Shown piece by piece: positions 4,335 to 28,497 of a DNA stretch of 32,177 nt; position 1 is the first letter of the stretch, and every line of letters begins with the position of its first letter. The position numbers and the translations under genes are program-made. This stretch comes from Promethearchaeati archaeon. GTDB taxonomy: Archaea; Asgardarchaeota; Heimdallarchaeia; JABLTI01. The stretch is taken from assembly GCA_013166835.1 (NCBI GenBank), contig JABLTI010000020.1, positions 1 through 32,177 on the forward strand. Reading direction: 5' to 3'. The notes beneath the pieces are model-generated. The model saw nothing but the letters and a program-made list of their open reading frames with translations. It had not been told where the DNA came from and ran no database searches.

Positions 4335-5489
4335 ATGATTAATCCACATGGTGGTAAGCTAATTGATAGAGTTGTTTCAGAAAAGAAACGAGAAAAAATC
4401 CTTAGAGAGTACAAAGAGCTCCCTCAACTAAAGATTTCTAACGAAACAATTGAGGACATAAACAATATTTCTCATGGAGTGTTCAGCCCCCTTAAGGGAT
4501 TCATGGGTGAAGAAGACATTGATTCCATAATCAAAAATGATCGACTTGCTAATAATCTTCCCTGGACAATACCAATTACGTTAAATGTATCTAAGAAAGT
4601 TGCAGATCAATACTCCAAAGGAGAAGAAATAGCAGTAATTAATGGTGAACAGAAAATAATTGCTATTCTACATCTTGAAGAGAAATTTCCTTACAAGAAA
4701 AAAGAAGTAGCTGAAAGCGTTTTTCAAACTCTAGATATGGAACATCCAGGCGTAACCAATGTTATGAATTCCCAAGATATTCTATTATCAGGAGAAGTTG
4801 ATCTTATAAACACTGATATTAAACGATTTAAAGAATACACGTTCTATCCTAAAGAAACAAGAAAAATATTCAAAGAGAAGAAATGGAAAACTGTAGTGGG
4901 ATTCCAAACAAGAAATGTGCCACATTTAGGGCACGAATATGTACAAAAAGCAGCGTTAACTTTAGTAGATGGATTATTTGTTAATCCGATCATAGGGAAG
5001 AAAAAGAAAGATGATTTCTTGGATCCAGTGATTTTAGGATCGTATAATATTCTGTTGGAGAATTATTATCCAAAAGAAAAAGCTACAATGGGCATTTTAA
5101 GAACAAGGATGCGTTACGGTGGACCTAAAGAAGCGATCTTTCATTCAATTATGCGTAAGAATTTTGGTTGTAGCCATTTTATTGTTGGACGAGATCATGC
5201 TGGTGTTGGTGATTTTTACGGACCATTCGATGCCCATGGTATCTTTGAGAAATTCGATGATTTAGAGATCCAACCTATTTGCTTCAGATCTTTTTATATT
5301 TGCGAAAAGTGTTCTGGTGTCGTCTCTGATAATGTCTGTCCTCACGATGGTACTGAGTATCAGAAATTTATTAGTGGTAAGAAAATACGCACTATGATTA
5401 TGAATAAAGAATTAGATAATTTAGGAGAATACATGCGACCAGAGGTTGCCCAGTATTTGATTGAACAAAAAGATTTGTTTGTTAAATAA
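4335..5489 (+). CDS. sat: Sulfate adenylyltransferase (ATP sulfurylase)
   Basis: PHGG N-terminus, FQTRN-HLGH, MRYGGPKEA, VGRDHAGVG, and CxxC..CPH zinc site. GGAGA RBS. Confidence 0.97.
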   Translation: MINPHGGKLIDRVVSEKKREKILREYKELPQLKISNETIEDINNISHGVFSPLKGFMGEEDIDSIIKNDRLANNLPWTIPITLNVSKKVADQYSKGEEIAVINGEQKIIAILHLEEKFPYKKKEVAESVFQTLDMEHPGVTNVMNSQDILLSGEVDLINTDIKRFKEYTFYPKETRKIFKEKKWKTVVGFQTRNVPHLGHEYVQKAALTLVDGLFVNPIIGKKKKDDFLDPVILGSYNILLENYYPKEKATMGILRTRMRYGGPKEAIFHSIMRKNFGCSHFIVGRDHAGVGDFYGPFDAHGIFEKFDDLEIQPICFRSFYICEKCSGVVSDNVCPHDGTEYQKFISGKKIRTMIMNKELDNLGEYMRPEVAQYLIEQKDLFVK

Positions 5490-5507
5490 TTAAAGATGTG
5501 ATTAAAT

Positions 5508-6056
5508 ATGAATGACCCCGGTTTTGTTGTATGGTTTACTGGTTTATCCGGCTCAGGAAAAACGACTTTAGGAGTTGTTTTAGAGAAAGAATTGTTGAAA
5601 CGTAATTTACGCGTTCAAAGACTTGATGGTGACATTGTAAGAAAATCTCTCACAAAAGACTTAGGTTTTTCAGAAGAAGATCGTAAGAAGAACATAGAAC
5701 GAATTACCTTTGTCACACGTTTACTTGCTAAACATGGAGTTGCTACCTTAGTCTCTTTCATTTCACCCTATATATCAGTCAGAGATAATGCAAGAAAAGA
5801 AGTAAACGAAGAAAGTGCAAAATTCGTTGAAGTCTTTGTGAAAGCCTCTGTAGAGGAATGCGCTAGAAGGGATGTTAAGGGTTTATACGAAAAAGCATTT
5901 GCTGGTGAAATCAAAAATTTTACTGGTGTAAGTCATCCCTACGAAGAACCTCCTAAATCCGAACTAGTTTGTGATACTGAAAATGAAACTGTTGAAGAAA
6001 GTGTTCTGATTATTTTAGAATATCTTGAGAAAGAGAAAATAATTCCAAAATCGTAA
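5508..6056 (+). CDS. cysC: Adenylyl-sulfate kinase
   Basis: WFTGLSGSGKTT, LDGD, DLGFSEEDR, ISPY, RDVKGLY and FTGVSHPYEEP motifs. Starts 18 bp after sat. Confidence 0.97.
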   Translation: MNDPGFVVWFTGLSGSGKTTLGVVLEKELLKRNLRVQRLDGDIVRKSLTKDLGFSEEDRKKNIERITFVTRLLAKHGVATLVSFISPYISVRDNARKEVNEESAKFVEVFVKASVEECARRDVKGLYEKAFAGEIKNFTGVSHPYEEPPKSELVCDTENETVEESVLIILEYLEKEKIIPKS

Positions 6057-6065
6057 TCATAATCC

Positions 6066-6092
6066 ATTTTCTCTTTTTATCATCTTTTTTTT
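6066..6092 (+). terminator. Putative archaeal oligo-T terminator after cysC
   Basis: T-rich tracts (TTTTCTCTTTTTATCATCTTTTTTTT) directly after the stop codon. Confidence 0.4.
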
Positions 6093-6176
6093 AGTAAAAT
6101 TTAATAGCTTCCTTGTTATTTCTTGTATAATCGGTTTGGCATTTACCGAGAGTACATTATATTGAGGCTCATCAAT

Positions 6177-7298
6177 ATGAAAGATCATTGGATAGTCAAT
6201 AAGATACCACTAGCTGGCTCTTCAATAAGTAATATTCTTAGATTGTTAATCCAGAATAAATTGAGAGTACATCCAAAATATTGGCTGCGTTTAGCTTATG
6301 CTTGGACTTTAAGTAGTGCTACAATGTTTATGCGTTTTGTTGAGAGACTTAGTTTCAATAGAAAAATCAACAAACATCAGTTAAAAGAAGATCCGATTTT
6401 CATAATAGGTCATTGGCGTAGTGGAACAACCTATATGCATTATCTTTTTGCACAAGATGAAAGCAAAGGACTATGTTCCAATATTGAAGTTTATGCACCA
6501 CATTACTTCATGGCTTTTCCTAAATTCACTAGAAAATTGATTGAATTCTCTTTGCCTGAAACCCGGCCAATGGATGAAATAAAGATTAATGCTGACTTAC
6601 CTGGTGAAGAAGAACATTCTATGGGAGCATATCACAAATACGGTTTCTTTCATAGTATGATTTTTCCAAGAAACTTCAAAACCTATGCTAGTTACAAATC
6701 TTTCGACAATGCAAAGCCTCGAGATTTGAAAAAATGGAAGAAGAAATATCAATTCTTTCTTAGGAAACTCTCAATTAGGAACAGAGACAGGAAGCTTGTT
6801 TTAAAGAATCCTGCAAATACCTATCGAGTAAAACATCTCCTTGAAATGTATCCTAACGCTAAATTCATTCACCTGTATAGAAATCCGTATGAAATTTATT
6901 CATCGACAATCAAGTTTCACAACGATACAATTAAGGTATTTACCCTACAAACTTGGGATTATGAGGAGTTAAAACAAAATGTTCTTGATATCTACAAAGA
7001 ACTCTATGTAGATTTTGATGAAAAGATAAAAGACGTTCCCAAAGAGAATTGGCTTGATATAAAGTATGAAGACTTCATTAGAGAACCTATGAAGACTATG
7101 GAGAAAGTCTACAAGGATCTAAAAATCGATGGATGGGATGAATATCAAGAAGCAATTCAAACTTTCAATGAAGAACAAAGAAAATACAAACTGGTAACCT
7201 ATACTCACTCAGATGAATTAATCAATACAATCAATGAGGATTGTAGCTTTATACTCAAGAAATTTGGTTATGAGAAACTTGAAACTAAGGGCAAATAA
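6177..7298 (+). CDS. PAPS-dependent sulfotransferase (Sulfotransfer_3 / mycobacterial Stf3-like)
   Basis: PIFIIGHWRSGTT (5'-PSB loop), RPMD, LKNP, AKFIHLYRNPY (3'-PB) and IKYEDF. Likely start ATG 6177 (ORF track begins at 6123). Confidence 0.92.
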   Translation: MKDHWIVNKIPLAGSSISNILRLLIQNKLRVHPKYWLRLAYAWTLSSATMFMRFVERLSFNRKINKHQLKEDPIFIIGHWRSGTTYMHYLFAQDESKGLCSNIEVYAPHYFMAFPKFTRKLIEFSLPETRPMDEIKINADLPGEEEHSMGAYHKYGFFHSMIFPRNFKTYASYKSFDNAKPRDLKKWKKKYQFFLRKLSIRNRDRKLVLKNPANTYRVKHLLEMYPNAKFIHLYRNPYEIYSSTIKFHNDTIKVFTLQTWDYEELKQNVLDIYKELYVDFDEKIKDVPKENWLDIKYEDFIREPMKTMEKVYKDLKIDGWDEYQEAIQTFNEEQRKYKLVTYTHSDELINTINEDCSFILKKFGYEKLETKGK

Positions 7299-7345
7299 TT
7301 GCCTTTTACACTAATCATTATTATTGCAGTAAGATTAATAACTGC

Positions 7346-7353
7346 TTTATAAA
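7346..7353 (+). promoter_or_regulatory. Candidate TATA box for second sulfotransferase
   Basis: TTTATAAA about 50 bp upstream of ATG 7399, with AGGTGG RBS in between. Confidence 0.4.
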
Positions 7354-7398
7354 AATCAAACATGATTGGTAGAATATAACCTTTTACAGGTGGATTCA

Positions 7399-8556
7399 AT
7401 GGGCAAAAAACAGGAGAAAAAACCAAAAAAAAATAGAACTCATTTAGTTGTGAAAGAAGAACCACTAGCAGGTATGTCTTCTATCAATATCTGGCGTTTA
7501 TTATTTCAGAATAGATTTAGAATTCATCCAAAATATTGGTTACGCTTCTGGTATGCCATTTTTCTGAGCTCAGTTATGACTCCTCTAAGAGTTCTTGAAG
7601 CGTTGAGATTCAAACGTAAGATTAAGAAAACAAAAATCATCCAAGATCCTTTATTCGTTATAGGTCATTATCGAACAGGTACAACATATCTAATGACTAC
7701 TTTAGCTTTAGATAAGAGTAAAGGCTATGTTTCTAACTTAGAAGGATATGCTCCTCATTATTTCTTAGGTGCTGAAAAAATAATTACAAAAATTCTTGAT
7801 GCCTCTTTGCCAGCGACACGTCCAATGGATAATGTGCCAATGGGTTCCTCTGAACCAACAGAAGAAGAATATTCCTTAGGAGCTATGCATAAATATGGTT
7901 ATTATAATGGTTTCATTTTTCCAAGAAATTTCAAATTGTATTCCAAATACAATTCATTTGATCAATGCTCAGAGAAAGATGCTGAGAAATGGCAGAAAGT
8001 TTTTTGGTTTTTCTTGCAGAAAATGACTTTGAAATACAATGGAAAAATGCTTATTCTAAAAAATCCTGCGAATACTTATCGGTTAAAGTATTTGCTTAAA
8101 ATGTATCCCAATGCAAAATTCATCCACATGTATAGGAATCCCTATTTGATGTATGCTTCTTCTGTAAGATTTTTCAGAGAAGTCTTTGCCATTTATGCTC
8201 TACAAACTTGGAAAGATGAAGATTTGCAACAAGGAATTCTAGACAATGTCAAAGAAATGTATGAGAAGCTAGATGTCGATAGAGCTCTCATTCCAAAAGA
8301 AAATATCATTGATATCAAATATGAGGATCTAATCAAAGAACCAATGAAACAATTCGAACGAATTTACAAAGAACTAAAAATTGATGGCTGGGAAGAAGTC
8401 AAAAAAGACATCAAAGCATACACTGATTCTCAAAAATCATACAAACCAAATAAATGGAATATATCAGATGATTATATCAAAAAAGTCAATAAGCACTGGG
8501 ATTTCATAAGAGAGCAACATGGTTACGAAAGAATAGAACCAAAAAACAAAAAATAA
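7399..8556 (+). CDS. PAPS-dependent sulfotransferase (Stf3-like), tandem paralogue
   Basis: PLFVIGHYRTGTT, RPMDN, LKNPANTYR, HMYRNPY and IKYEDL; colinear with the upstream paralogue. Likely start ATG 7399 (ORF track begins at 7366). Confidence 0.92.
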   Translation: MGKKQEKKPKKNRTHLVVKEEPLAGMSSINIWRLLFQNRFRIHPKYWLRFWYAIFLSSVMTPLRVLEALRFKRKIKKTKIIQDPLFVIGHYRTGTTYLMTTLALDKSKGYVSNLEGYAPHYFLGAEKIITKILDASLPATRPMDNVPMGSSEPTEEEYSLGAMHKYGYYNGFIFPRNFKLYSKYNSFDQCSEKDAEKWQKVFWFFLQKMTLKYNGKMLILKNPANTYRLKYLLKMYPNAKFIHMYRNPYLMYASSVRFFREVFAIYALQTWKDEDLQQGILDNVKEMYEKLDVDRALIPKENIIDIKYEDLIKEPMKQFERIYKELKIDGWEEVKKDIKAYTDSQKSYKPNKWNISDDYIKKVNKHWDFIREQHGYERIEPKNKK

Positions 8557-19643: not shown

Positions 19644-20606
19644 TTGAGTTTCCTTAGAAGATTAATTAGCGCTGACAAAAGAAAAGGTTTAGATGGTGGT
19701 CCTGCCAAACAACATGTTGCTATTATTGGATTAGATGCAGCTGGAAAAACTACTATTATGAAGAGGATATTACGTTCTGAATACACTCTTTCCAAACCAA
19801 CTTTTGGAGTAAACATTGAAGTATACAGATATCGAACTTTAGAATTCGTTGTTTGGGATCTTGGTGGTCATGCTCCCATAAGAAAAACATTATGGAAGAA
19901 ATTCGTTACTAAAGCTCAAGTTATTGTTTTTGTAGTGGATGCTGCAGATAAAAAGCGTTTTAATCTAGCTAAGGATGTTTTCTATGAATCTTTAGAAAAC
20001 ACAGAGCCAAATGCTCCTATTCTTTTCTTAGCAAACAAATCAGATAAAGAAGATGCTGCCTCTTCAGTAGAAGTAATGGAAGCACTAGAACTTCAGAAAA
20101 TGACCCGATCTGATAGAACGTTCAATATGTTTCGTTGTTCAGCTTTAACAGGTGAAGGATTATTCAATGCTTGGGATTGGCTTGTAGATATCGTTGCTAA
20201 AGACAAACACGTTCCAACCTGGCATGTAAAAATATTCTCCGCAGTTGCATTTGATTCAAATGGTAAAGAATTAGATCAAGCCATTTTTGGTAATCCAACG
20301 CAACAAGCAAAAGTGGCTACGGCTTATCGGGAATCTATAAAAGAGACGGAACGGTTTGCTAAACAGATGCGAGACTATAATGAGGCTGTAACAGTATTAG
20401 AAATCATGGAAGATTATCAATTAGTTATTACTAAAAACAAGTTATTTGTCTTGGGTATTCTCATAGACGTTAACGATCCTGTTAGCAGGGTTTTAACAAT
20501 TGCAAGTCGTATTTTTGATGCAATTGAAATGGATTATCTCAAAGGAATATCTGTTTCGTTAGAAAAAGTGATTTCAAATTATTTCCCCTTAGACGCAATT
20601 TCGTGA
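19644..20606 (+). CDS. Arf/Sar1-like small GTPase fused to a C-terminal longin/roadblock-like domain
   Basis: GLDAAGKTT, PTFG, WDLGGH, FLANKSD and CSALTGEGL..WL. N-terminal amphipathic helix and an approximately 130-aa C-terminal alpha/beta domain. TTG start after GGAGA. Confidence 0.9.
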   Translation: MSFLRRLISADKRKGLDGGPAKQHVAIIGLDAAGKTTIMKRILRSEYTLSKPTFGVNIEVYRYRTLEFVVWDLGGHAPIRKTLWKKFVTKAQVIVFVVDAADKKRFNLAKDVFYESLENTEPNAPILFLANKSDKEDAASSVEVMEALELQKMTRSDRTFNMFRCSALTGEGLFNAWDWLVDIVAKDKHVPTWHVKIFSAVAFDSNGKELDQAIFGNPTQQAKVATAYRESIKETERFAKQMRDYNEAVTVLEIMEDYQLVITKNKLFVLGILIDVNDPVSRVLTIASRIFDAIEMDYLKGISVSLEKVISNYFPLDAIS

Positions 20607-20614
20607 AATCACTA

Positions 20615-20650
20615 TTTTATTTCTTTTATCCTTTATTTTTCTTTTTTATT
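20615..20650 (+). terminator. Putative oligo-T terminator
   Basis: Several T4-T6 runs immediately after the stop at 20606. Confidence 0.4.
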
Positions 20651-20743
20651 TACACACCGATAATCATTTATAAAATATTGTTTCTAAATAATAGTAAAAA
20701 AAGATATACTTAGGTGATTTCCTTCGTGAAGGGAGAGGAATCT

Positions 20744-21709
20744 ATGAAAAAAACAAAAAGTGCAATAGAAGCATTCTCTAATTACTTGCAAAAGAAAGAA
20801 CATATCATACCTTGGGTTCTATTAATTGGAGAAAAAGGATCAGGTAAGACAACTTTGCTTTATTATCTACTATCATCCAATCGTGACAAAGTTTTCCCAG
20901 AAACAGCTCTTAATTGGATAGATATTTCTTATGGGGCAGAATGGTTTAAACTTATAGATTTAGGAGAGGAAATCTTAACGGATAATATGGTTACAGAATA
21001 TTTCTTGTCAATTGCAGATGGAATTGTCTATGTTATAAATGGAGAATCAGATGAATCCCTCAGAGAATCCACAGAACAGTTCCATAATATTGTGGATAAA
21101 ATTCCATCGAATGTACCACTTCTTATTATGATTAACAAAAGAGATCCTGAGAAAGACGTTAATCTGAGCCAAGTTTTAAGTAATTATGATCTTGGTAGAA
21201 TTTCTTCACCAACAGATCCTCGATCATTTCACTTTGAGATCTGTACAATTATAACAGGGGAAGGCATCTACAGAGCTTTTGATTGGTTTGTCTCGAAACT
21301 AATGGCTTATGAAGGCTATCATGAGATAGTAAATGTTCATAGAGTGTTAATCTATGATGTAAATGGTTTACTTGATTTTGATGCTCAATTTTCAAATATA
21401 ACAGATAGTGAACAAGACGCTGTTTTAATTACTGGTTTATTGTCTGCTCTTAACTCCATGACGAGAACTTTATTTAAAGATTCCAGTTTTTTAGATGTTG
21501 TAACAGTGGGAGATTATTCCATGGTTCTTGTTTCAAGCAAACAAAAGATCTGTTGTTTGTTTGTTGAACGAGGTGGAGCTATTGGTAAAGCGAAGCAAAT
21601 AGCAGAAATGATACTTGATAGATATTTAGAAGAAGGTGAAAGTGGACGAATTGCTATAGAGAATATTGTGGAAGAAAGCAAGCATAAAGATGAAGATATA
21701 TCCATTTAG
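20744..21709 (+). CDS. Divergent Arf-like GTPase fused to a longin-like domain
   Basis: GEKGSGKTT, degenerate G3 (DLGEE), INKRD and CTIITGEGI..FDWF. The C-terminal LIYDVNG..LITGLLSAL is longin-like. Likely ATG 20744 after GGAGAGG (ORF track begins at 20714). Confidence 0.85.
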   Translation: MKKTKSAIEAFSNYLQKKEHIIPWVLLIGEKGSGKTTLLYYLLSSNRDKVFPETALNWIDISYGAEWFKLIDLGEEILTDNMVTEYFLSIADGIVYVINGESDESLRESTEQFHNIVDKIPSNVPLLIMINKRDPEKDVNLSQVLSNYDLGRISSPTDPRSFHFEICTIITGEGIYRAFDWFVSKLMAYEGYHEIVNVHRVLIYDVNGLLDFDAQFSNITDSEQDAVLITGLLSALNSMTRTLFKDSSFLDVVTVGDYSMVLVSSKQKICCLFVERGGAIGKAKQIAEMILDRYLEEGESGRIAIENIVEESKHKDEDISI

Positions 21710-21868
21710 CAATTTTTATTAATTTAAAATCAAGATAATGATAATACACTGTAGAGATATCGGTTAAAGCAAATTTATAAATTTAAAAAAATATATCAAT
21801 GCAGAATCATTGCACAAAAATCAAAACATCAATCAAAAAATAAACACAAGAAGAAAGGATGAGAAGAA

Positions 21869-22672
21869 ATGTCAGGAATGGAATCGAAAAAAGAACATTT
21901 GTTAGGAATCGTGTTTGTGACCTTTGAAGATACTGGTCCCTCAGTAATCTATAATGATACTGACCTCACTGAAGAGCAAACACTTACTTTGGCAGTAGAA
22001 GGAATGACTATTGTAGGTCTAGATGAGGGATCACAAGGAAAAACATTGAAAGAAAAAAAGGCATCAATATTTGATACCATGGATGATAAACGTTCGTTCG
22101 GACCATTACCTGTCCCAGATGCTCAAGATCTTCGTGCAATGGCTATTACTTTCGATGTTGAATCTGTTGATTCATCTGATCATAGAATTACGGAATTCGG
22201 TCGAAAATGCATTTTATTCCTTCTCTTTAGAGAGGATTATACGCGAGAAATTCTTGACGCATATGGCTTAATCAAACCATATTTCTCTGTTATAGTAAGA
22301 GATGTAACATCTGAAAATGATTTAACTCATGCAAACTTACTAGACATGTCCCGAAAGATGGGTTTGCTCTTTTCAGGGAAACTCCCTCGTGTCTTCACAC
22401 TTACGGAAGATGGTTCTCCAAAAGAACTAATAGGGAAGAAAATTCCTGCATCAGATGTTTTCTTAGTTGCAGACAAAAACAAAAGCACCTTATCAATTCT
22501 CTTCTATCATCCGGATCCAACAGTTTGGAGAAGAAGACAAATTTACAAGAGTGCTTCAGAATTGAATTCAAGTGTCTTTAAGAATAAATTGAAAGTTATC
22601 ACTGTCACCGAAATAGCAGAGATGTCTAAGATACTTGATAGGTTAAATGTATCCATTGAAAAAATATTTTAA
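21869..22672 (+). CDS. Longin/uDENN (NPRL2-like) domain protein with C-terminal gelsolin-like domain
   Basis: N-terminal GIVFVTFEDTGP..FGPLP..AITF..DHR..CILFLL. C-terminal approximately 95 aa VFTL..DVFLVAD..ILFYH..VWRRR..ASEL..KVITV matches the gelsolin-fold pattern by eye. Confidence 0.6.
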   Translation: MSGMESKKEHLLGIVFVTFEDTGPSVIYNDTDLTEEQTLTLAVEGMTIVGLDEGSQGKTLKEKKASIFDTMDDKRSFGPLPVPDAQDLRAMAITFDVESVDSSDHRITEFGRKCILFLLFREDYTREILDAYGLIKPYFSVIVRDVTSENDLTHANLLDMSRKMGLLFSGKLPRVFTLTEDGSPKELIGKKIPASDVFLVADKNKSTLSILFYHPDPTVWRRRQIYKSASELNSSVFKNKLKVITVTEIAEMSKILDRLNVSIEKIF

Positions 22673-22675
22673 TCC

Positions 22676-22718
22676 ATGAGAAAAGGCAGATTCGCTTTTC
22701 CTCATTTATTTCTTATTT
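22676..22718 (+). terminator. Hairpin plus T-tract terminator-like element
   Basis: ATGAGAAAAGGC-AGATTC-GCTTTTCCTCAT (12-bp stem with one mismatch and one G-U) followed by TTATTTCTTATTT. Confidence 0.5.
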
Positions 22719-22737
22719 CCCTTTAAGTCTGTAGAAA

Positions 22738-22753
22738 CGAATAGCTTTATATT
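22738..22753 (+). promoter_or_regulatory. Candidate BRE-TATA for Rab-like GTPase
   Basis: CGAATAGC-TTTATAT about 50 bp upstream of the ORF. Confidence 0.45.
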
Positions 22754-22799
22754 AAATGTTACATTTTAATGGTTTGTTAAAACAGATTTCTCTAAAAGA

Positions 22800-23351
22800 A
22801 TGAAAGCATTAGGGGCGCTGCAATTGTCAAAAATCATTGCTAAGGTTGTATTTGGTGGGGATGGTGGAGTAGGAAAAACCACACTTATTCAGCGTTATCT
22901 TACAGGTGAATTTATAGATACAACTAAGTTGACTATTGGTGTTGGATTCCACATCCATCAGATGAGTTATCAAGGCAGAGATATTTCTTTGAGTGTCTGG
23001 GACTGTGGAGGACAAGAACAATTCAAGCAAATGGGTATTTTTGATAATTATTTCAGAGGAGCACTTGTTGCTATTTTGATGTTTGATTTAACTCGAGCCT
23101 TATCTATTGGTGGACTCGATACTTGGCATAGTTTCGTAGACCAAAGCGTTAAGACTGATATAATAATTATCGGAGGTAAAAGTGATCTTCCAAGAGATCC
23201 TCTCCTATCTGATGATATAATAGAAGAGACAATCAAGAAGTATAAGGCTAAAAGATATATTGAGACTTCATCTGCAAATGGACTTGGAGTAGATTTGGTA
23301 TTTAATGAAATTGCTCGATTATCATTAGATAAAATACCTGATTTGTATTGA
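22800..23351 (+). CDS. Rab-like small GTPase
   Basis: GDGGVGKTT, TIGVGF, WDCGGQEQF, YFRGA, GGKSD and ETSS. Alternative TTG start at 22824. Confidence 0.92.
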   Translation: MKALGALQLSKIIAKVVFGGDGGVGKTTLIQRYLTGEFIDTTKLTIGVGFHIHQMSYQGRDISLSVWDCGGQEQFKQMGIFDNYFRGALVAILMFDLTRALSIGGLDTWHSFVDQSVKTDIIIIGGKSDLPRDPLLSDDIIEETIKKYKAKRYIETSSANGLGVDLVFNEIARLSLDKIPDLY

Positions 23352-23884: not shown

Positions 23885-25651
23885 TTATAGGTACGGTGTT
23901 TGTGCTCTTTGTTTTATGTTCCGATTTAGAAAGAAGTTAATAATAACACTAACAATTTTCATTATACCTATAAACATTAATCCCCAAGTTAAGAAATTGG
24001 TAATAGCTGTAAGCCATTCTGTATTTCCAACTTCTACACTTACCACAGCTAATGCAGAGATAACATTGTTTGTTATATGAATAAAGATAGCTGATTCTAT
24101 GCCATATTTTACAAATGCATAGCTAAGAAAGAATCCCGATAAACTTGCTTGCACAATCTTCCAAGCGCCCCAACTACCTGTCCAACCTTCCCAATGAGCA
24201 AACCCGAAAATTAATGATGAAATTCCAATAAAGGACCATTCCACATAACCAATGGTTTTGTATTTACCCCTTATAGCAAGAAAAATATTAGAAACTTTTA
24301 GTCTTTTCTTCTCAACATTTTTTTCTATGGATACAGAATCTGTCATAGCATTTTCTTGAATAATGAAACGGATCAATACAACAAAAATCATCGGAACACC
24401 AATAAGAATAAGTCTAAAGCTAAGTTCTTCAAAAACACCAGCCCAAGCAACAGCGATTATTGAAACAAATGGATCTTCAGCAATCGGTCCAGTATCTCCT
24501 CCTGAAATAAATGGAGTTAATATTAGTATGATAATTATAGAAGAAATCATGGACGCACCTAGTAATTCAATTGATTTTATGAAAGGCATGTTTTTTATTT
24601 GGTAAAAGGCAGTGGGCAGAATCCCTTTCCTCTCTTCTAATGGACTTAGTTTGAGAATGTGAAGTTCTTGTTGTGAACTGGATTTTTCTATGTCAGTATC
24701 TAAGAGTTCGGTAGTATCGTCTTTCTTTTCAGTTCCACCAATTACATCAGGATCAGAACGTTTTCTCTTGAGCAAATATTTCACAAGTGTTGGTAAAGTC
24801 ATGAGTAGAATACAAGAAAAGTAAATGAAGAATAACAAAATGTAGATGTTTGATTTAGTCATATTGATTGGTATGATAAAAATGTAAAACAACCAAAAGT
24901 ATTCATTTATTGATACAATTTCATTTGGATTATAAAAAATCCAACCAAATATAGAGACTATAATTAAAATTGCAACTAGACTTGAGAGTCCAAGAAAGAG
25001 GAATCTTAAAATTTTATAGAGACCATTCCAAGCATCGTTATCTGGTTTATACGTAAGCAAAGAAATTCCTGCAGTCATGAAGATTACTACAGGGAGAAGA
25101 TTCATTCCTATCAATGCACCATAAAGCGCAGCTTTGCTAAGTCCAAAATCTGCAGTTCCTAATAATTCTAAAAAGACATCCGATTCAGTTACAAAGAGGG
25201 TTATAAAGAAAGTTACTAAAGCACCTATACCTAACACTATGAATATAATTCCAAAAACCATAGCAATTGTGTTTCTTGATTCCAATCTTTGTCTTCGTTG
25301 TTGTTCTTTAAGTCTTTCCTGAACATCTTGAGGTAGTTTATGAAGTGGAGTATATACTGATTGTTTATCACTAGCAATTGAAATTGCAGGTGATTGTTGT
25401 GCACGTTGAGTTGATTGCTGAGTCAATCTCATTGGTGAACCACAGTAACCGCAGTAGGAATTATAGATTGGAACCTCTACTCCACATTTACTACAATTTA
25501 CTTTATCTACGAAATGATGACCACAAAAGTTACAAAAAAGGTTTGCTTGAGGATTTTTCTCTCCACAATTTGTACAAATAGTTGACTCTTTGTCAGTTTC
25601 AGTGACATCTTCTTTTTCTTCATTGGGTGAATTATTGTTCTCCTCTTCCAT
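23885..25651 (-). CDS. Double zinc-ribbon CPBP (type II CAAX protease/Rce1/Abi family) intramembrane protease
   Basis: Four CxxC pairs at the N-terminus, many TMs, and EELSFR, FGFAH and HITNN motifs. Confidence 0.88.
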   Translation of the reverse strand: MEEENNNSPNEEKEDVTETDKESTICTNCGEKNPQANLFCNFCGHHFVDKVNCSKCGVEVPIYNSYCGYCGSPMRLTQQSTQRAQQSPAISIASDKQSVYTPLHKLPQDVQERLKEQQRRQRLESRNTIAMVFGIIFIVLGIGALVTFFITLFVTESDVFLELLGTADFGLSKAALYGALIGMNLLPVVIFMTAGISLLTYKPDNDAWNGLYKILRFLFLGLSSLVAILIIVSIFGWIFYNPNEIVSINEYFWLFYIFIIPINMTKSNIYILLFFIYFSCILLMTLPTLVKYLLKRKRSDPDVIGGTEKKDDTTELLDTDIEKSSSQQELHILKLSPLEERKGILPTAFYQIKNMPFIKSIELLGASMISSIIIILILTPFISGGDTGPIAEDPFVSIIAVAWAGVFEELSFRLILIGVPMIFVVLIRFIIQENAMTDSVSIEKNVEKKRLKVSNIFLAIRGKYKTIGYVEWSFIGISSLIFGFAHWEGWTGSWGAWKIVQASLSGFFLSYAFVKYGIESAIFIHITNNVISALAVVSVEVGNTEWLTAITNFLTWGLMFIGIMKIVSVIINFFLNRNIKQRAQTPYL

Positions 25652-25849: not shown

Positions 25850-26581
25850 ATGAGTAAAATTTCTGGAATATTACTTGATTTTGACGGTGTTTTATCCTCT
25901 ATTGTCGTGAGATTAGGGTGGCCGTTCTATCATGCATTAAAGAAAGTGAAACCGAATGCAAGAAAAATGGAAATTTTGTACTCTCTTAATGAAATAATGA
26001 ATATGTACTTGAAAGAAGAAAATCGAAATCTATTTTATGTTCCAAAAATGGTAATAAAAATAAGTAGAAATCTTCAACTAAATTATTTTCAAATGTTTAG
26101 ATTTATAGTCTATCTTCTTGTTTTAATAAAGAAAAATAATAATAATATTGCTCCTGAGGATCGAGCAGATGATGTTTTGAAATTTGTTACTAATAATTAC
26201 AAAACAGCTATTGTAACTCATGCTGAAAGAGAGGTTATTCATTCAGCATTTAAGAAATTCAAGTATCTGAAGGATATTGATGTAATAATCACACAACAAG
26301 ATATGAAATACACGAAACCACATCCTGAAGGATTAAATAAAGCAATGAAATCCTTGGGATTAAAACCAGATGAAACTATTTTTGTTGGAGATTTACCACA
26401 TGATATACAAGCAGGAAAAAGAGCAGGAACTTTGACTTGTGCGGTCGTTAATTTCGAAGGAGCTGAGCAAGGTAAAAGAGATGTTCTGAAACGCTTTAAA
26501 CCGGATTTCATAATTAATCATGTAAGAGATTTACCAAAGCTTCTTAGAAAGTTGGAAAAAAAATCTCTGCTTGGTTATTAG
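25850..26581 (+). CDS. HAD-superfamily hydrolase (class IA)
   Basis: DFDGVL, IVT, KPHPEG and FVGDLPHDIQAG motifs. Confidence 0.92.
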   Translation: MSKISGILLDFDGVLSSIVVRLGWPFYHALKKVKPNARKMEILYSLNEIMNMYLKEENRNLFYVPKMVIKISRNLQLNYFQMFRFIVYLLVLIKKNNNNIAPEDRADDVLKFVTNNYKTAIVTHAEREVIHSAFKKFKYLKDIDVIITQQDMKYTKPHPEGLNKAMKSLGLKPDETIFVGDLPHDIQAGKRAGTLTCAVVNFEGAEQGKRDVLKRFKPDFIINHVRDLPKLLRKLEKKSLLGY

Positions 26582-28497
26582 CTGGAATCATCTGAAATGA
26601 GTTTTGGTATATCAATAATTATAATCGAGCCTTTTGTTTTATCTTTTTCATCTCGATCTTTAACTGAGATATAACCTTTGAAACTCTCAATTATAGCTTT
26701 AACAAGAGTGAGTCCAAACCCAGAACCATGGATAGTGCCTTTACTTCTTGCATATCTATCGAAAAGGAATTTTTTCATTTCCTCTCCAATTCCTGGACCT
26801 TGATCCATGAATTCAATTCGCCAATATCCATCAAAATCATCAGATGTAGATATATTGATTTCAATTATAATCTCATCACTTCGATCATACATGACAGCAT
26901 TATCTAAAATATTGAAAAATGCGTCTTTTAACAATTCATTTCCTAAAGTGAAATATTTCTTTGTTTTCAAATTATGATTTATAGTTATCACTCGTGGTTC
27001 GAATTTATCCAAAAGTGCTTCTTTTGCTTTTTCTAAAGCAATATTAATATCATAAGGAGTGTAATCATATCCTTTCCTTTTGATTTTGAAAAATTTGTCC
27101 ATATTTGCTATTAACTCACCAATACGCAAAATTTCAATTCGACTTTTTCTTTGTTTAATGATTGAATCTGTAGGATTTGATTCAACTTTTAGCAATGACA
27201 AATCTATTTGCGACAATGCATCTTGGCAGAGATTCAAAACATCATGAAATAATAAATCACTGTAAAATTCTAGTTCACCTTTTTCTTCTCGAAGAGAATT
27301 TACTAATTGTCTCAAGTCACTTACAGGATCTAAAACCAAAATGAAGCCAGCTTTTTCTTCAAAAGAGATTGGAGAAATTTGCACTCTGAAAGGTAAAGGC
27401 ATTCGATCTTTTCTTATGCAAGTTATTTCTCCTACATAATTTTTCCTAGTAATGTAAATCTTATTCATTTCACTAAGAAGCTCTTTAGCTGCATCCTTAG
27501 TTTGGAATAATAAGCTAATATCTTCTCCTGTTAACGTTTCCACAGAATATTGGAGAATTCTTTCAACGGCATTATTTATCCAAGTTATCTTCTGATTGAC
27601 TACATTCATTATTATTGATTCACTATTATTCATAATTGATTTGAAGAAATCAATAGCATTTACAGATGTTTCAGAGCTTTCAGGTACATGTTGTCTAAAA
27701 AATAAAAGAATTCCTTTTGATAAATCATTTCTATCAATAGCATTTCCATGTATTCTCACAGATATTTCTACATCATTTTTTGATTTTAGAATACCCTGAT
27801 AAAATAGCTCGCCCTTACTCTTCAAATCTCTATTACATGCAAGCAGAAATTTAGCATAGTCATCTTGATTTCTAAATAAAAATTCTAAGGAGTGATTTTT
27901 CACTTCATTGTGTTTATAATCGAAAAACTTTTGCCAATTCTGAGAAGTCCAATAAATCTGATTGTTTTTCATGAATACTACTGGTGTTTTGATTACATTT
28001 ATCATGATTTCAAAATCGCGATCTTCCGAGATAGCTTTGATTGGCATGAGTTCCTCTGTGATATCAAATTCAACTAATAAATAACCAATATGTTTCTTAG
28101 ATTCTGACTCTAGAAACTTTTGAGAGATACCTCGTATCCAACGCATTTCCCCAGAGGGCTTAAAAATACGATACATAATAGGAATAGAATAACCATCATG
28201 TTTAAACTTAGAGAAATTTTCTTTAACTAAGATACGGTCATCAGGATGAATATAGCCGTAGGTTGTTAGGAGCTGAAAATCTTCAAAAGAATAACCTATG
28301 ACCTTCTCTGAATTTTGAGTAGTATAAAGTAATTCATCGTTTAAATCAATAAGAGAAATTCTGATGTTAATTAGATCTTCAAACATACTTGCCCACATTA
28401 CAACATCATGTTCATCTAGAATGTCTGTATATTTGGTGATCTTCTTTGATTTGGAAGAAATCTTCTCTCCAGCTGGTTCTTCTCTGTTAATACGCAT
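26578..28497 (-). CDS. Cytoplasmic multi-PAS sensor histidine kinase
   Basis: PAS/PAC motifs (IHPDDR, GEMRWI; about three PAS domains), H-box FHDVLN, N-box NILDNA, G1 DQGPG and G2 GSGFGL. No TM segment. Confidence 0.93.
   Translation of the reverse strand: MRINREEPAGEKISSKSKKITKYTDILDEHDVVMWASMFEDLINIRISLIDLNDELLYTTQNSEKVIGYSFEDFQLLTTYGYIHPDDRILVKENFSKFKHDGYSIPIMYRIFKPSGEMRWIRGISQKFLESESKKHIGYLLVEFDITEELMPIKAISEDRDFEIMINVIKTPVVFMKNNQIYWTSQNWQKFFDYKHNEVKNHSLEFLFRNQDDYAKFLLACNRDLKSKGELFYQGILKSKNDVEISVRIHGNAIDRNDLSKGILLFFRQHVPESSETSVNAIDFFKSIMNNSESIIMNVVNQKITWINNAVERILQYSVETLTGEDISLLFQTKDAAKELLSEMNKIYITRKNYVGEITCIRKDRMPLPFRVQISPISFEEKAGFILVLDPVSDLRQLVNSLREEKGELEFYSDLLFHDVLNLCQDALSQIDLSLLKVESNPTDSIIKQRKSRIEILRIGELIANMDKFFKIKRKGYDYTPYDINIALEKAKEALLDKFEPRVITINHNLKTKKYFTLGNELLKDAFFNILDNAVMYDRSDEIIIEINISTSDDFDGYWRIEFMDQGPGIGEEMKKFLFDRYARSKGTIHGSGFGLTLVKAIIESFKGYISVKDRDEKDKTKGSIIIIDIPKLISDDSS

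Follow-up and report, generated by a model that had tools for sequence, protein, structure and literature searches.

The window studied here is a 32,177-nucleotide (nt) stretch of DNA from a Promethearchaeati archaeon (Asgardarchaeota; Heimdallarchaeia), positions 1 to 32,177 of contig JABLTI010000020.1; the assembly (GCA_013166835.1) is 84.75% complete with 6.79% contamination, and the G+C content is ~33% across the window. Four open reading frames (ORFs), g1 to g4, lie co-oriented on the forward strand and span positions 19644–23351 exactly in the ORF list of the window (Table 1). This agrees with the original prediction, made from the DNA letters, which had described four adjacent co-oriented genes encoding three small-GTPase domains, three longin/roadblock-like domains and one gelsolin-like domain. 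All these domains were recovered. The GTPase domains appeared as Pfam Arf (g1 and g2) and Ras (g4) matches, and the longin/roadblock-like domains were found by modelling and Foldseek for g3 and the g1 tail and by alignment to g1 for the g2 tail. The gelsolin-like domain of g3 emerged from Foldseek and from a profile match to the ProGel entry 7c2f_B, though Pfam is silent on it. The first three genes, g1-g2-g3, are the conserved core unit of the locus (hereafter the triad), which occurs in two families of one Asgard class: the window's own family (f1) and a second family (f2).

Table 1. Genes of the GTPase locus and other features of the window
Feature	Position	Strand	Predicted product
g1	19644–20606	+	320 residues; Arf-family GTPase (residues 22–182) and C-terminal longin/roadblock-fold domain (residues 186–320; window 20199–20603)
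g2	20714–21709	+	331 residues as listed; Arf-family G domain (residues 34–195) and C-terminal longin/roadblock-like domain (window 21299–21706)
g3	21869–22672	+	267 residues; longin (residues ~9–145) and gelsolin-type domain (residues ~170–260)
g4	22800–23351	+	183 residues; Rab-like (RasL-type) small GTPase
Sulfate activation/transfer cluster	4335–8556	+	ATP-sulfurylase, APS kinase and two sulfotransferase-family proteins
Zinc-ribbon membrane protein	23885–25651	-	588 residues
Histidine kinase	26578–28497	-	PAS-PAS histidine kinase

The g2 orthologues are 316–321 residues in length and begin with MK..K at the position matching the ATG at 20744; the g2 protein is therefore probably 321 residues long and starts there. 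With this start, the spacers between the four genes are 137, 159 and 127 nt in length; they are AT-rich and contain TATA-like runs.

The G domains of g1 and g2 both match the Pfam Arf family (curated cut-off 22.3 bits), with E values of 8.9e-44 (149.5 bits) and 2.8e-19 (69.7 bits), respectively. Among PDB sequences, Arl1 (2.2e-32) and then Arf1 are nearest to g1, and Arf1 (6.2e-11) is nearest to g2; HodArfR1 (8oul, 1.1e-27) was also matched by g1 and GerdArfR1 (8oun, 7.1e-10) by g2, both entries being Asgard ArfR structures according to the preprint 10.1101/2024.02.28.582541. No Rag chain is present among the best 60 PDB sequences listed for g1 or g2, and no Sar1 chain among those listed for g1. 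The Gtr1_RagA family (PF04670) has no match to g1 at E≤1, and g2 reaches 21.4 bits, below the 22-bit cut-off. Judged by these matches, the G domains of both proteins are Arf-family and not Rag-type.

All G motifs are present in g1; its switch II reads WDLGGH and its G4 motif NKSD. The N-terminus, MSFLRRLI, places hydrophobic residues at F3, L4, L7 and I8, compared with F3, F4, L7 and I11 in HodArfR1 (a by-eye reading). In the g1 orthologues, switch II is (W/F)DLGGH in 9/9 f1 and 4/4 f2 sequences, NKxD is present, and the N-termini read MSFLRR.. or MSFYEF... The histidine of g1 occupies the catalytic position of switch II, where Sar1 and SR-beta carry a histidine as well.

The P-loop of g2 (GEKGSGKT) is intact; its DxxG motif and catalytic residue are missing (DLGEE). 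The same is true of the family: all 23 g2 orthologues (19 from f1 and 4 from f2) are without DxxG and retain the P-loop GxxxxGK(T/S), with switch II variants such as DLG(K/E)E in the 19 f1 sequences and EADEE or EVDEE in the four f2 sequences. The G4 aspartate is kept in 9 of the 19 f1 and in all four f2 orthologues. Since DxxG is missing in both families, its loss is as old as their split, and because this motif is lost, g2 is probably a degenerate but conserved partner that does not cycle. By its motifs the g1/g2 pair is asymmetric, a complete switch in g1 standing beside a dead switch in g2.

The fourth gene encodes a GTPase of another type. It matches Pfam Ras with an E value of 1.5e-32 (112.8 bits), and the PDB sequences nearest to it are Ypt6 (9.4e-24), Ypt7 and Rab11. 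It contains a WDCGGQ motif and ends with ...KIPDLY, with no C-terminal (prenylation) cysteine. We assigned g4 as a Rab-like GTPase of the Asgard RasL type.

BLASTP aligned g1 and g2 at 24% identity across 282 residues (E 1e-21), with both domains included, and the two proteins can be regarded as paralogues along their whole length. The g1 tail (residues 186–320) was modelled from a 51-row alignment with a predicted local distance difference test score (pLDDT) of 91.9 and a predicted template modelling score of 0.86. The elements of the tail follow the order strand-strand-helix-strand-strand-strand-helix-helix (bbabbbaa), which is of longin type. Foldseek identified 19 PDB matches at E≤1e-3, those listed having probabilities of 0.99–1.00. 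Longin proteins among them are zeta-COP, sigma-adaptin and Ykt6, the last with the best template modelling score (TM, 0.61); roadblock proteins are dynein LC7, the Asgard Roadblock entries 9jue and 7f8m, LAMTOR chains, MglB and Ego3. Mon1-Ccz1, Ragulator-Rag entries and the LAMTOR-RagA/C C-terminal domain complex 6ehr are also in the list. Based on the model, the g1 tail belongs to the longin/roadblock superfamily, with the longin-type order. The C-terminal half of g2 aligns to the g1 tail and has a weak Robl_LC7 match (E 0.075), so that the g2 tail appears to be longin/roadblock-like as well.

Paralogy, adjacency and fold together make it fairly probable that g1 and g2 form a heterodimer through their C-terminal domains. 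We also ran a complex prediction of g1, g2 and g3 with two GTP molecules, in which g3 was the scored partner. The scores were 0.64, 0.61 and 0.52; they became 0.00 and 0.00 when the scored partner was replaced, and 0.65 when g2 was swapped for an unrelated protein. Scored on g3 in this way, the prediction counts neither for nor against any interaction.

g3 matches no Pfam and no NCBIfam family, and phmmer of g3 against PDB sequences gave no link to a known family. Its close relatives are at least 78% identical. A profile built from 16 sequences was searched against 1.84 billion representatives, and 96 proteins were retrieved at E≤1e-3, 44 of them at ≤1e-10 and 5 at ≤1e-30. The AF2 model of g3, calculated from a 66-row alignment, has a pLDDT of 87.4. 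For the N-terminal half, Foldseek found the Asgard longin 8yqg_B (E 1.2e-4, TM 0.64 by target) together with 8adl_U, 9o5a_H, 7t3a_B, 7mge_C, 4zy8_B and 6v4u_A; the systems represented are the SEA complex, GATOR1, C9orf72-SMCR8, DENND10, TRAPPII and Lst4. As modelled, residues ~9–145 of g3 have the longin fold.

The C-terminal half of the g3 model matches Thorarchaeota ProGel (7c2f_B) with a TM of 0.74 by target and a root-mean-square deviation (rmsd) of 2.7 Å across 90 columns. Lokiarchaeota 2DGel, human gelsolin domains, 7whg_G, 7c2h_G and gelsolin G2 entries were matched as well, and the g3 family profile found 7c2f_B among PDB sequences with an E value of 6.8e-4. Residues ~170–260 are thus predicted to have the gelsolin fold. 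The original prediction had proposed a fold search for each domain; run on g3 and the g1 tail, Foldseek gave longin, gelsolin and longin/roadblock folds.

Conservation within the g3 family was analyzed in an alignment of 66 sequences, which reaches down to 16% identity. It is concentrated in the longin, and the gelsolin positions vary. Near-invariant longin positions include D21 (60/66), G23 (64/66), P24 (65/66), G78 (64/66), P81 (61/66), D104 (64/66), R106 (62/66) and G111 (61/66), which form the motifs G23-P24 (GP motif), G78-P-x-P81 and S102-x-D104-x-R106. In the gelsolin-type domain, W220-R221-x-R223, located at the start of the long helix, is common to f1 and the f2 orthologue.

To describe the gene order, we searched related genomes and fetched 20 regions round g3 homologues: 2 from the same genus, 4 from f2, 5 with a g3 paralogue and 9 with distant homologues. 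Matches to the g3 family are present in 40 of 41 related genomes. Both same-genus regions retain the whole order of upstream gene, g1, g2, g3, g4 and two downstream genes. All four f2 regions retain g1-g2-g3, at identities of ~38–39%, 30–32% and 38–40%, respectively, with no g4; in the complete f2 genome (L023) the gaps within the triad are 3 and 12 nt, and the next gene encodes an NYN nuclease. In a wider set of loci, g2 adjoins g3 in 10 of 11 f1 loci (in the remaining locus the contig stops 55 nt beyond g3) and abuts it in 10/10 f2 genomes found in both the g2 and the g3 searches. A small GTPase gene upstream of the triad in L023 was considered as a further member of the module; as it is not kept in the three other f2 regions, it was not counted as one.

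The g2 gene follows the same two families. Among 83 genomes of the class, g2 orthologues at E≤1e-36 occur in 10/11 f1 relatives and 28/31 f2 genomes; two further f2 genomes have g2 copies that are incomplete at contig ends, and other families of the class have g2 matches at paralogue level or none. Across 301 Asgard genomes, 37 contain a g2 orthologue at E≤1e-25, namely the genome of the window, 10/11 f1 and 26/28 f2 genomes. With the window g2 as query and the same threshold, the 261 genomes that represent 28 further Asgard families yielded none. Such an order, conserved in many genomes, is not due to chance.

Conservation by common descent, without physical or regulatory coupling of the neighbours, could in principle give the same picture, as the triad occurs in only two families, which are kin and not independent, and as the spacers in the window are long. 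However, the order was retained despite 30–39% identity while the flanks differ between the families, the f2 gaps are only 3 and 12 nt, and g1 and g3 paralogues at other sites of the genomes show no such linkage. We consider descent alone highly improbable, and it is very likely that the triad is one functional unit.

The unlinked relatives of g1 and g3 in the genome of the window lie at C50:21237-22187, C140:5231-6112, C251:42843-43604, C156:18936-19610, C184:1221-1928 and C4:3451-4230. Two of these relatives are full-length GTPase-longin fusions, with 43% and 27% identity to g1; the other four belong to the g3 longin family, and one of them is 44% identical over the full length. In the regions examined, none of these paralogues lies beside a g1 or g2 homologue. 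A g3 paralogue of ~45% identity was considered as the mark of a duplicated module; with g1 or g2 homologues in 0/5 of the paralogue regions, this was rejected.

Different from the triad, the linkage of g4 to its neighbours is restricted to one family. It directly follows g3 in 11/11 f1 loci, across two genera, and within the DNA examined no g4 homologue lies downstream of the f2 triad (0/4 wide regions, 0/8 loci). Gene order in relatives, which the original prediction had named as a check, is conserved for g1-g2-g3 in both families and for g4 in f1 only. As it is linked in f1 alone, g4 is a family-level add-on and not the core target. This bears on a four-gene cascade, in which longin dimers of g1, g2 and g3 would act on g4 as the main output. 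The retention of the four genes with the same flanks in the genus and the 11/11 f1 loci fit such a cascade; the f2 triad, which has no g4 homologue downstream in 4/4 wide regions and 8/8 loci and is followed by the NYN nuclease gene in the complete genome, does not. In addition, g4-like GTPases gave 13 tblastn matches in the genome at E≤1e-6 (12 besides g4), so the adjacency of g4 may be incidental. Taken together, we regard the cascade as quite unlikely.

Outside the two families, no g1 or g2 homologue was found in the nine regions round distant g3 homologues. A g4-like Ras-family GTPase lies within ~4 kb of the g3 homologue in three of these nine regions: ~2.6 kb downstream in L032 and L034 (both of family f4), and ~2.8 kb off on the same strand in L033. 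These cases hint that longins and GTPases may recurrently be neighbours beyond the triad, though less tightly.

The conserved longin positions of g3 can be compared with those of longin GTPase-activating proteins (GAPs). According to PMC12290439 (Traffic 2025), the GP motif lies just before strand 2, beside the arginine finger; it is specific to the GAP longins FLCN, NPRL2, SMCR8 and C9orf72 and is missing from non-GAP longins, and the arginine fingers are R164 in FLCN, R78 in NPRL2 and R147 in SMCR8. In the g3 model, G23-P24 is located at the start of strand 2 (residues 24–29), which is the place defined for the GP motif in that paper. R106 lies between strands 4 and 5 of the model, 82 residues past the GP motif, compared to 78 in SMCR8; in the longin sheet order, we infer that the hairpin of R106 adjoins the strand 1-2 hairpin.

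A different role for g3 would be that of a platform or guanine nucleotide exchange factor (GEF), as in Mon1-Ccz1, TRAPP, DENN and Ragulator; its longin, with or without the g1 and g2 tails, would then open the pocket of g1 or g4. Most longin-domain regulators are GEFs (PMC12290439), TRAPPII and DENND10 entries are among the Foldseek matches of g3, Mon1-Ccz1 and Ragulator among those of the g1 tail, and g4 follows g3 in 11/11 f1 loci. However, g4 is missing from the f2 operon and hence cannot be the core client. Moreover, members of the g3 family almost always have R106 and the GP motif, which is missing from non-GAP longins (PMC12290439), and this pair favours a GAP role over the GEF role that the original prediction had put first. 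We consider the GEF role unlikely. By analogy, a GAP function of g3 is the tentative choice, at slightly less than even odds.

The gelsolin-type domain offers another way to a GAP. In a Sec23-like arrangement, it would contact g1, Sar1-like in its switch II histidine, and supply the catalytic residue in place of the longin; g3 would then be a stand-alone precursor of the gelsolin module found in the COPII GAP. W220-R221-x-R223, common to f1 and the f2 orthologue, could provide such a residue, and Sec23 chains are present in the Foldseek list of g3. Their probabilities are only 0.47–0.51, however, with an rmsd of ~17 Å. In the wider g3 family, R221 is found in 16/66 and R223 in 18/66 sequences, compared with 62/66 for R106, and g1 is nearest to Arl1/Arf1, with no Sar1 among the 60 PDB sequences listed. 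A Sec23-like mechanism is therefore very unlikely. According to Zhu 2025, the gelsolin domain is the very one missing from Asgard Sec23-like proteins.

We favour a Rag-style heterodimer of g1 and g2 in which the G domains are of Arf type and g3 serves as the cognate GAP, and give this reading a probability of roughly 0.5. The core would be a three-gene GTPase switch module, to which g4 was added in the window's family. With its full motif set and the histidine at the catalytic switch II position, g1 would be the working switch; its N-terminus, predicted to be amphipathic as in Arf proteins, is expected to bind membranes in the GTP state. g2 would be a fixed partner, which keeps its P-loop without cycling, and the two would pair in the manner of Rag/Gtr through their longin/roadblock tails. 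As regulator of the pair, g3 would most likely act as a GAP of g1, presenting R106 alongside its GP motif in the way of folliculin, NPRL2 and SMCR8. The gelsolin-type domain of g3 may link the switch to actin, or it may help to hold the G domain, as happens in Sec23.

Several observations weigh against this reading. Since the Pfam and PDB rankings of the G domains are Arf-type, the term Rag-style covers architecture only, and Foldseek leaves longin and roadblock undivided for the g1 tail. Among the 66 g3 family members, none matches the folliculin, NPR2 or SMCR8 families at E≤0.01; in the genome of the window, PF06218 has 0 matches and none of the three PF11704 matches is g3. A profile of the g3 longin alone finds no PDB chain at E≤10. 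R106 is a candidate equivalent of the known arginine fingers, judged by topology and spacing, and known longin GAPs are longin heterodimers, whereas g3 has a single longin. The YLWRG of ProGel, with its LWRG core, aligns with ILFYHPD in g3, meaning that the W-x-G core motif is lost; with the core replaced, actin binding by g3 is doubtful. Finally, due to the long AT-rich spacers, the four genes may not share one transcript in the window.

Some weaker leads touch the relation of g3 to known longin GAPs. In a search of the ESM Atlas with g3, one of the clusters (score 0.90) has NPR2 on 19% of its members, which is a weak lead. The PF11704 (Folliculin) matches of the genome lie at C18:2765-2983, C106:14753-14938 and C14:8792-8962, two of them above the cut-off. 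The ORF on C14 is also weakly matched by the g3 longin profile (E 0.012) and may connect the g3 family with longins of the folliculin type.

The triad resembles several known systems in part. Like the Rag/Gtr GTPases and their longin GAPs (GATOR1 NPRL2-NPRL3 and FLCN-FNIP), it has two paralogous GTPases with C-terminal domains of predicted longin/roadblock fold and a separate longin protein in which a GP motif and an arginine are conserved; in the Foldseek lists, g3 matches GATOR1 and the SEA complex and the g1 tail matches Ragulator-Rag. Different from Rag/Gtr, the G domains of the triad are of the Arf family and not Gtr1_RagA, and one partner is without switch II. The Rag longin GAPs are longin heterodimers with DENN or other domains, whereas g3 is a single chain of 267 residues with a gelsolin-type domain and shows no sequence homology to NPR2 or folliculin. 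Sec23-Sar1 and SR-beta/SRX are similar in that an Arf-family GTPase, with a histidine at the catalytic position, is regulated via a gelsolin-type or longin domain. Sec23 has trunk, barrel and zinc-finger domains, none of which is found in g3, and SR-beta/SRX belongs to the signal recognition particle receptor, a context that the triad does not have. The C9orf72-SMCR8-WDR41 complex is a longin-based GAP for an Arf-family GTPase, with GP motif and arginine finger (PMC12290439), a role that we infer for g3; 7mge_C and 6v4u_A are among the Foldseek matches of g3. That complex needs two longin subunits with DENN modules, whereas g3 has one longin and a gelsolin-type domain.

Among Asgard proteins, the closest likeness is found in MK-D1 (Prometheoarchaeum), for which Tran 2024 (PMC10933270) describes an operonic Rag-like GTPase-roadblock pair predicted to dimerise like Gtr1/Gtr2. 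These are adjacent GTPase-longin/roadblock fusions, Arf by sequence, as in the triad; a linked longin-gelsolin gene or a degenerate partner is not mentioned in the sections consulted. The Discussion of that paper states that operons of MK-D1 do not as a rule combine GTPase genes with longin/roadblock genes, so that partners cannot be read from the layout. According to PMC12290439, 15 Asgard longins have the GP motif, and the paper raises ArfR and Rag/Gtr proteins as alternative partners for them. Its FLCN/SMCR8-type longins of Heimdallarchaeia resemble g3 in having the GP motif and an arginine in the described arrangement; which GTPase they serve is left open there, and operons, genomic context and gelsolin go unmentioned. 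PMC7444086 (Akil et al. 2020) lists the Asgard gelsolin forms ProGel, 1DGelX and 2DGel. Like ProGel, g3 contains a single gelsolin-type domain, but in g3 it sits behind a longin, an arrangement not among these three forms, and LWRG is changed to LFYHPD.

These three papers agree with the earlier statement that the component families are known in Asgard archaea. For the g1-g2-g3 triad, the longin-gelsolin fusion and the dead-switch partner, no description was found in the full texts searched; supplements may hold entries. Two features thus appear to be unreported, namely the partner GTPase with a dead switch and the fusion of a longin with a gelsolin-type domain. Small GTPases of eukaryotic type number in the dozens in Asgard genomes, longin/roadblock proteins are numerous as well, and matching regulators to GTPases is a general problem there. 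A triad that is intact in two families is a concrete candidate answer to the partner question of PMC12290439 and is open to ordinary biochemistry. The dead switch and the longin-gelsolin fusion also bear on the origin of Rag-type and Arf-GAP-type systems, with ties to actin and COPII-like GAPs. In the widest reading, the triad would be a prokaryotic version, still extant, of the longin GAPs and paired GTPases of eukaryotes, such as GATOR1/FLCN with Rags and C9orf72-SMCR8-WDR41 with Arf. Longin/roadblock tails would lock an Arf-type GTPase to its paralogue with the dead switch, a longin GAP of a single chain with GP motif and arginine would turn the switch off, and the gelsolin-type domain of this GAP would couple the switch directly to Asgard actin. 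We hold this to be a speculation with little chance of being right; if true, Asgard archaea would have their first GTPase with an assigned regulator, and small-GTPase signalling would have been directly connected to the cytoskeleton before eukaryotes arose.

Regarding expression, RNA-library contigs map to parts of g1 and g3. Those of X1 (at least 99% identity) map to 20000–20237 and to 21804–22512 in four pieces; those of X3 (~95% identity), from a different study, map to 19846–20281 and 21880–22687. None of the contigs covers g2 or g4, which is uninformative, and X2 is probably DNA. These contigs are a weak hint of expression, because DNA carry-over is possible and the contigs show no strand. 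A promoter/terminator scan gave counts at the level of shuffled sequence; its model is sigma-70, which is unsuited to archaea.

The neighbours that flank the module in the window are unrelated to it: a 374-residue protein without a family, a HycI protease, a zinc-ribbon membrane protein and a HAD hydrolase. At its N-terminus, the zinc-ribbon protein has a double zinc ribbon (6e-09), and numerous membrane helices are predicted for it; throughout the genus it stays downstream of the module, with 42% identity. By eye, its C-terminal part resembled a CPBP/CAAX-type protease, a family that Pfam did not report. Further downstream, the histidine kinase matches PAS_9 (1e-20) and HATPase_c (2.7e-17), and no response regulator was found for it among the window ORFs scanned. 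The cluster upstream of the module contains an ATP-sulfurylase with a PUA-like domain (1.1e-77), an APS kinase (2.9e-60; APS, adenosine 5′-phosphosulfate) and two tandem Sulfotransfer_3 proteins (1.4e-34 and 3e-28). This gene content suggests sulfation of some acceptor in the Asgard archaeon, dependent on 3′-phosphoadenosine 5′-phosphosulfate.

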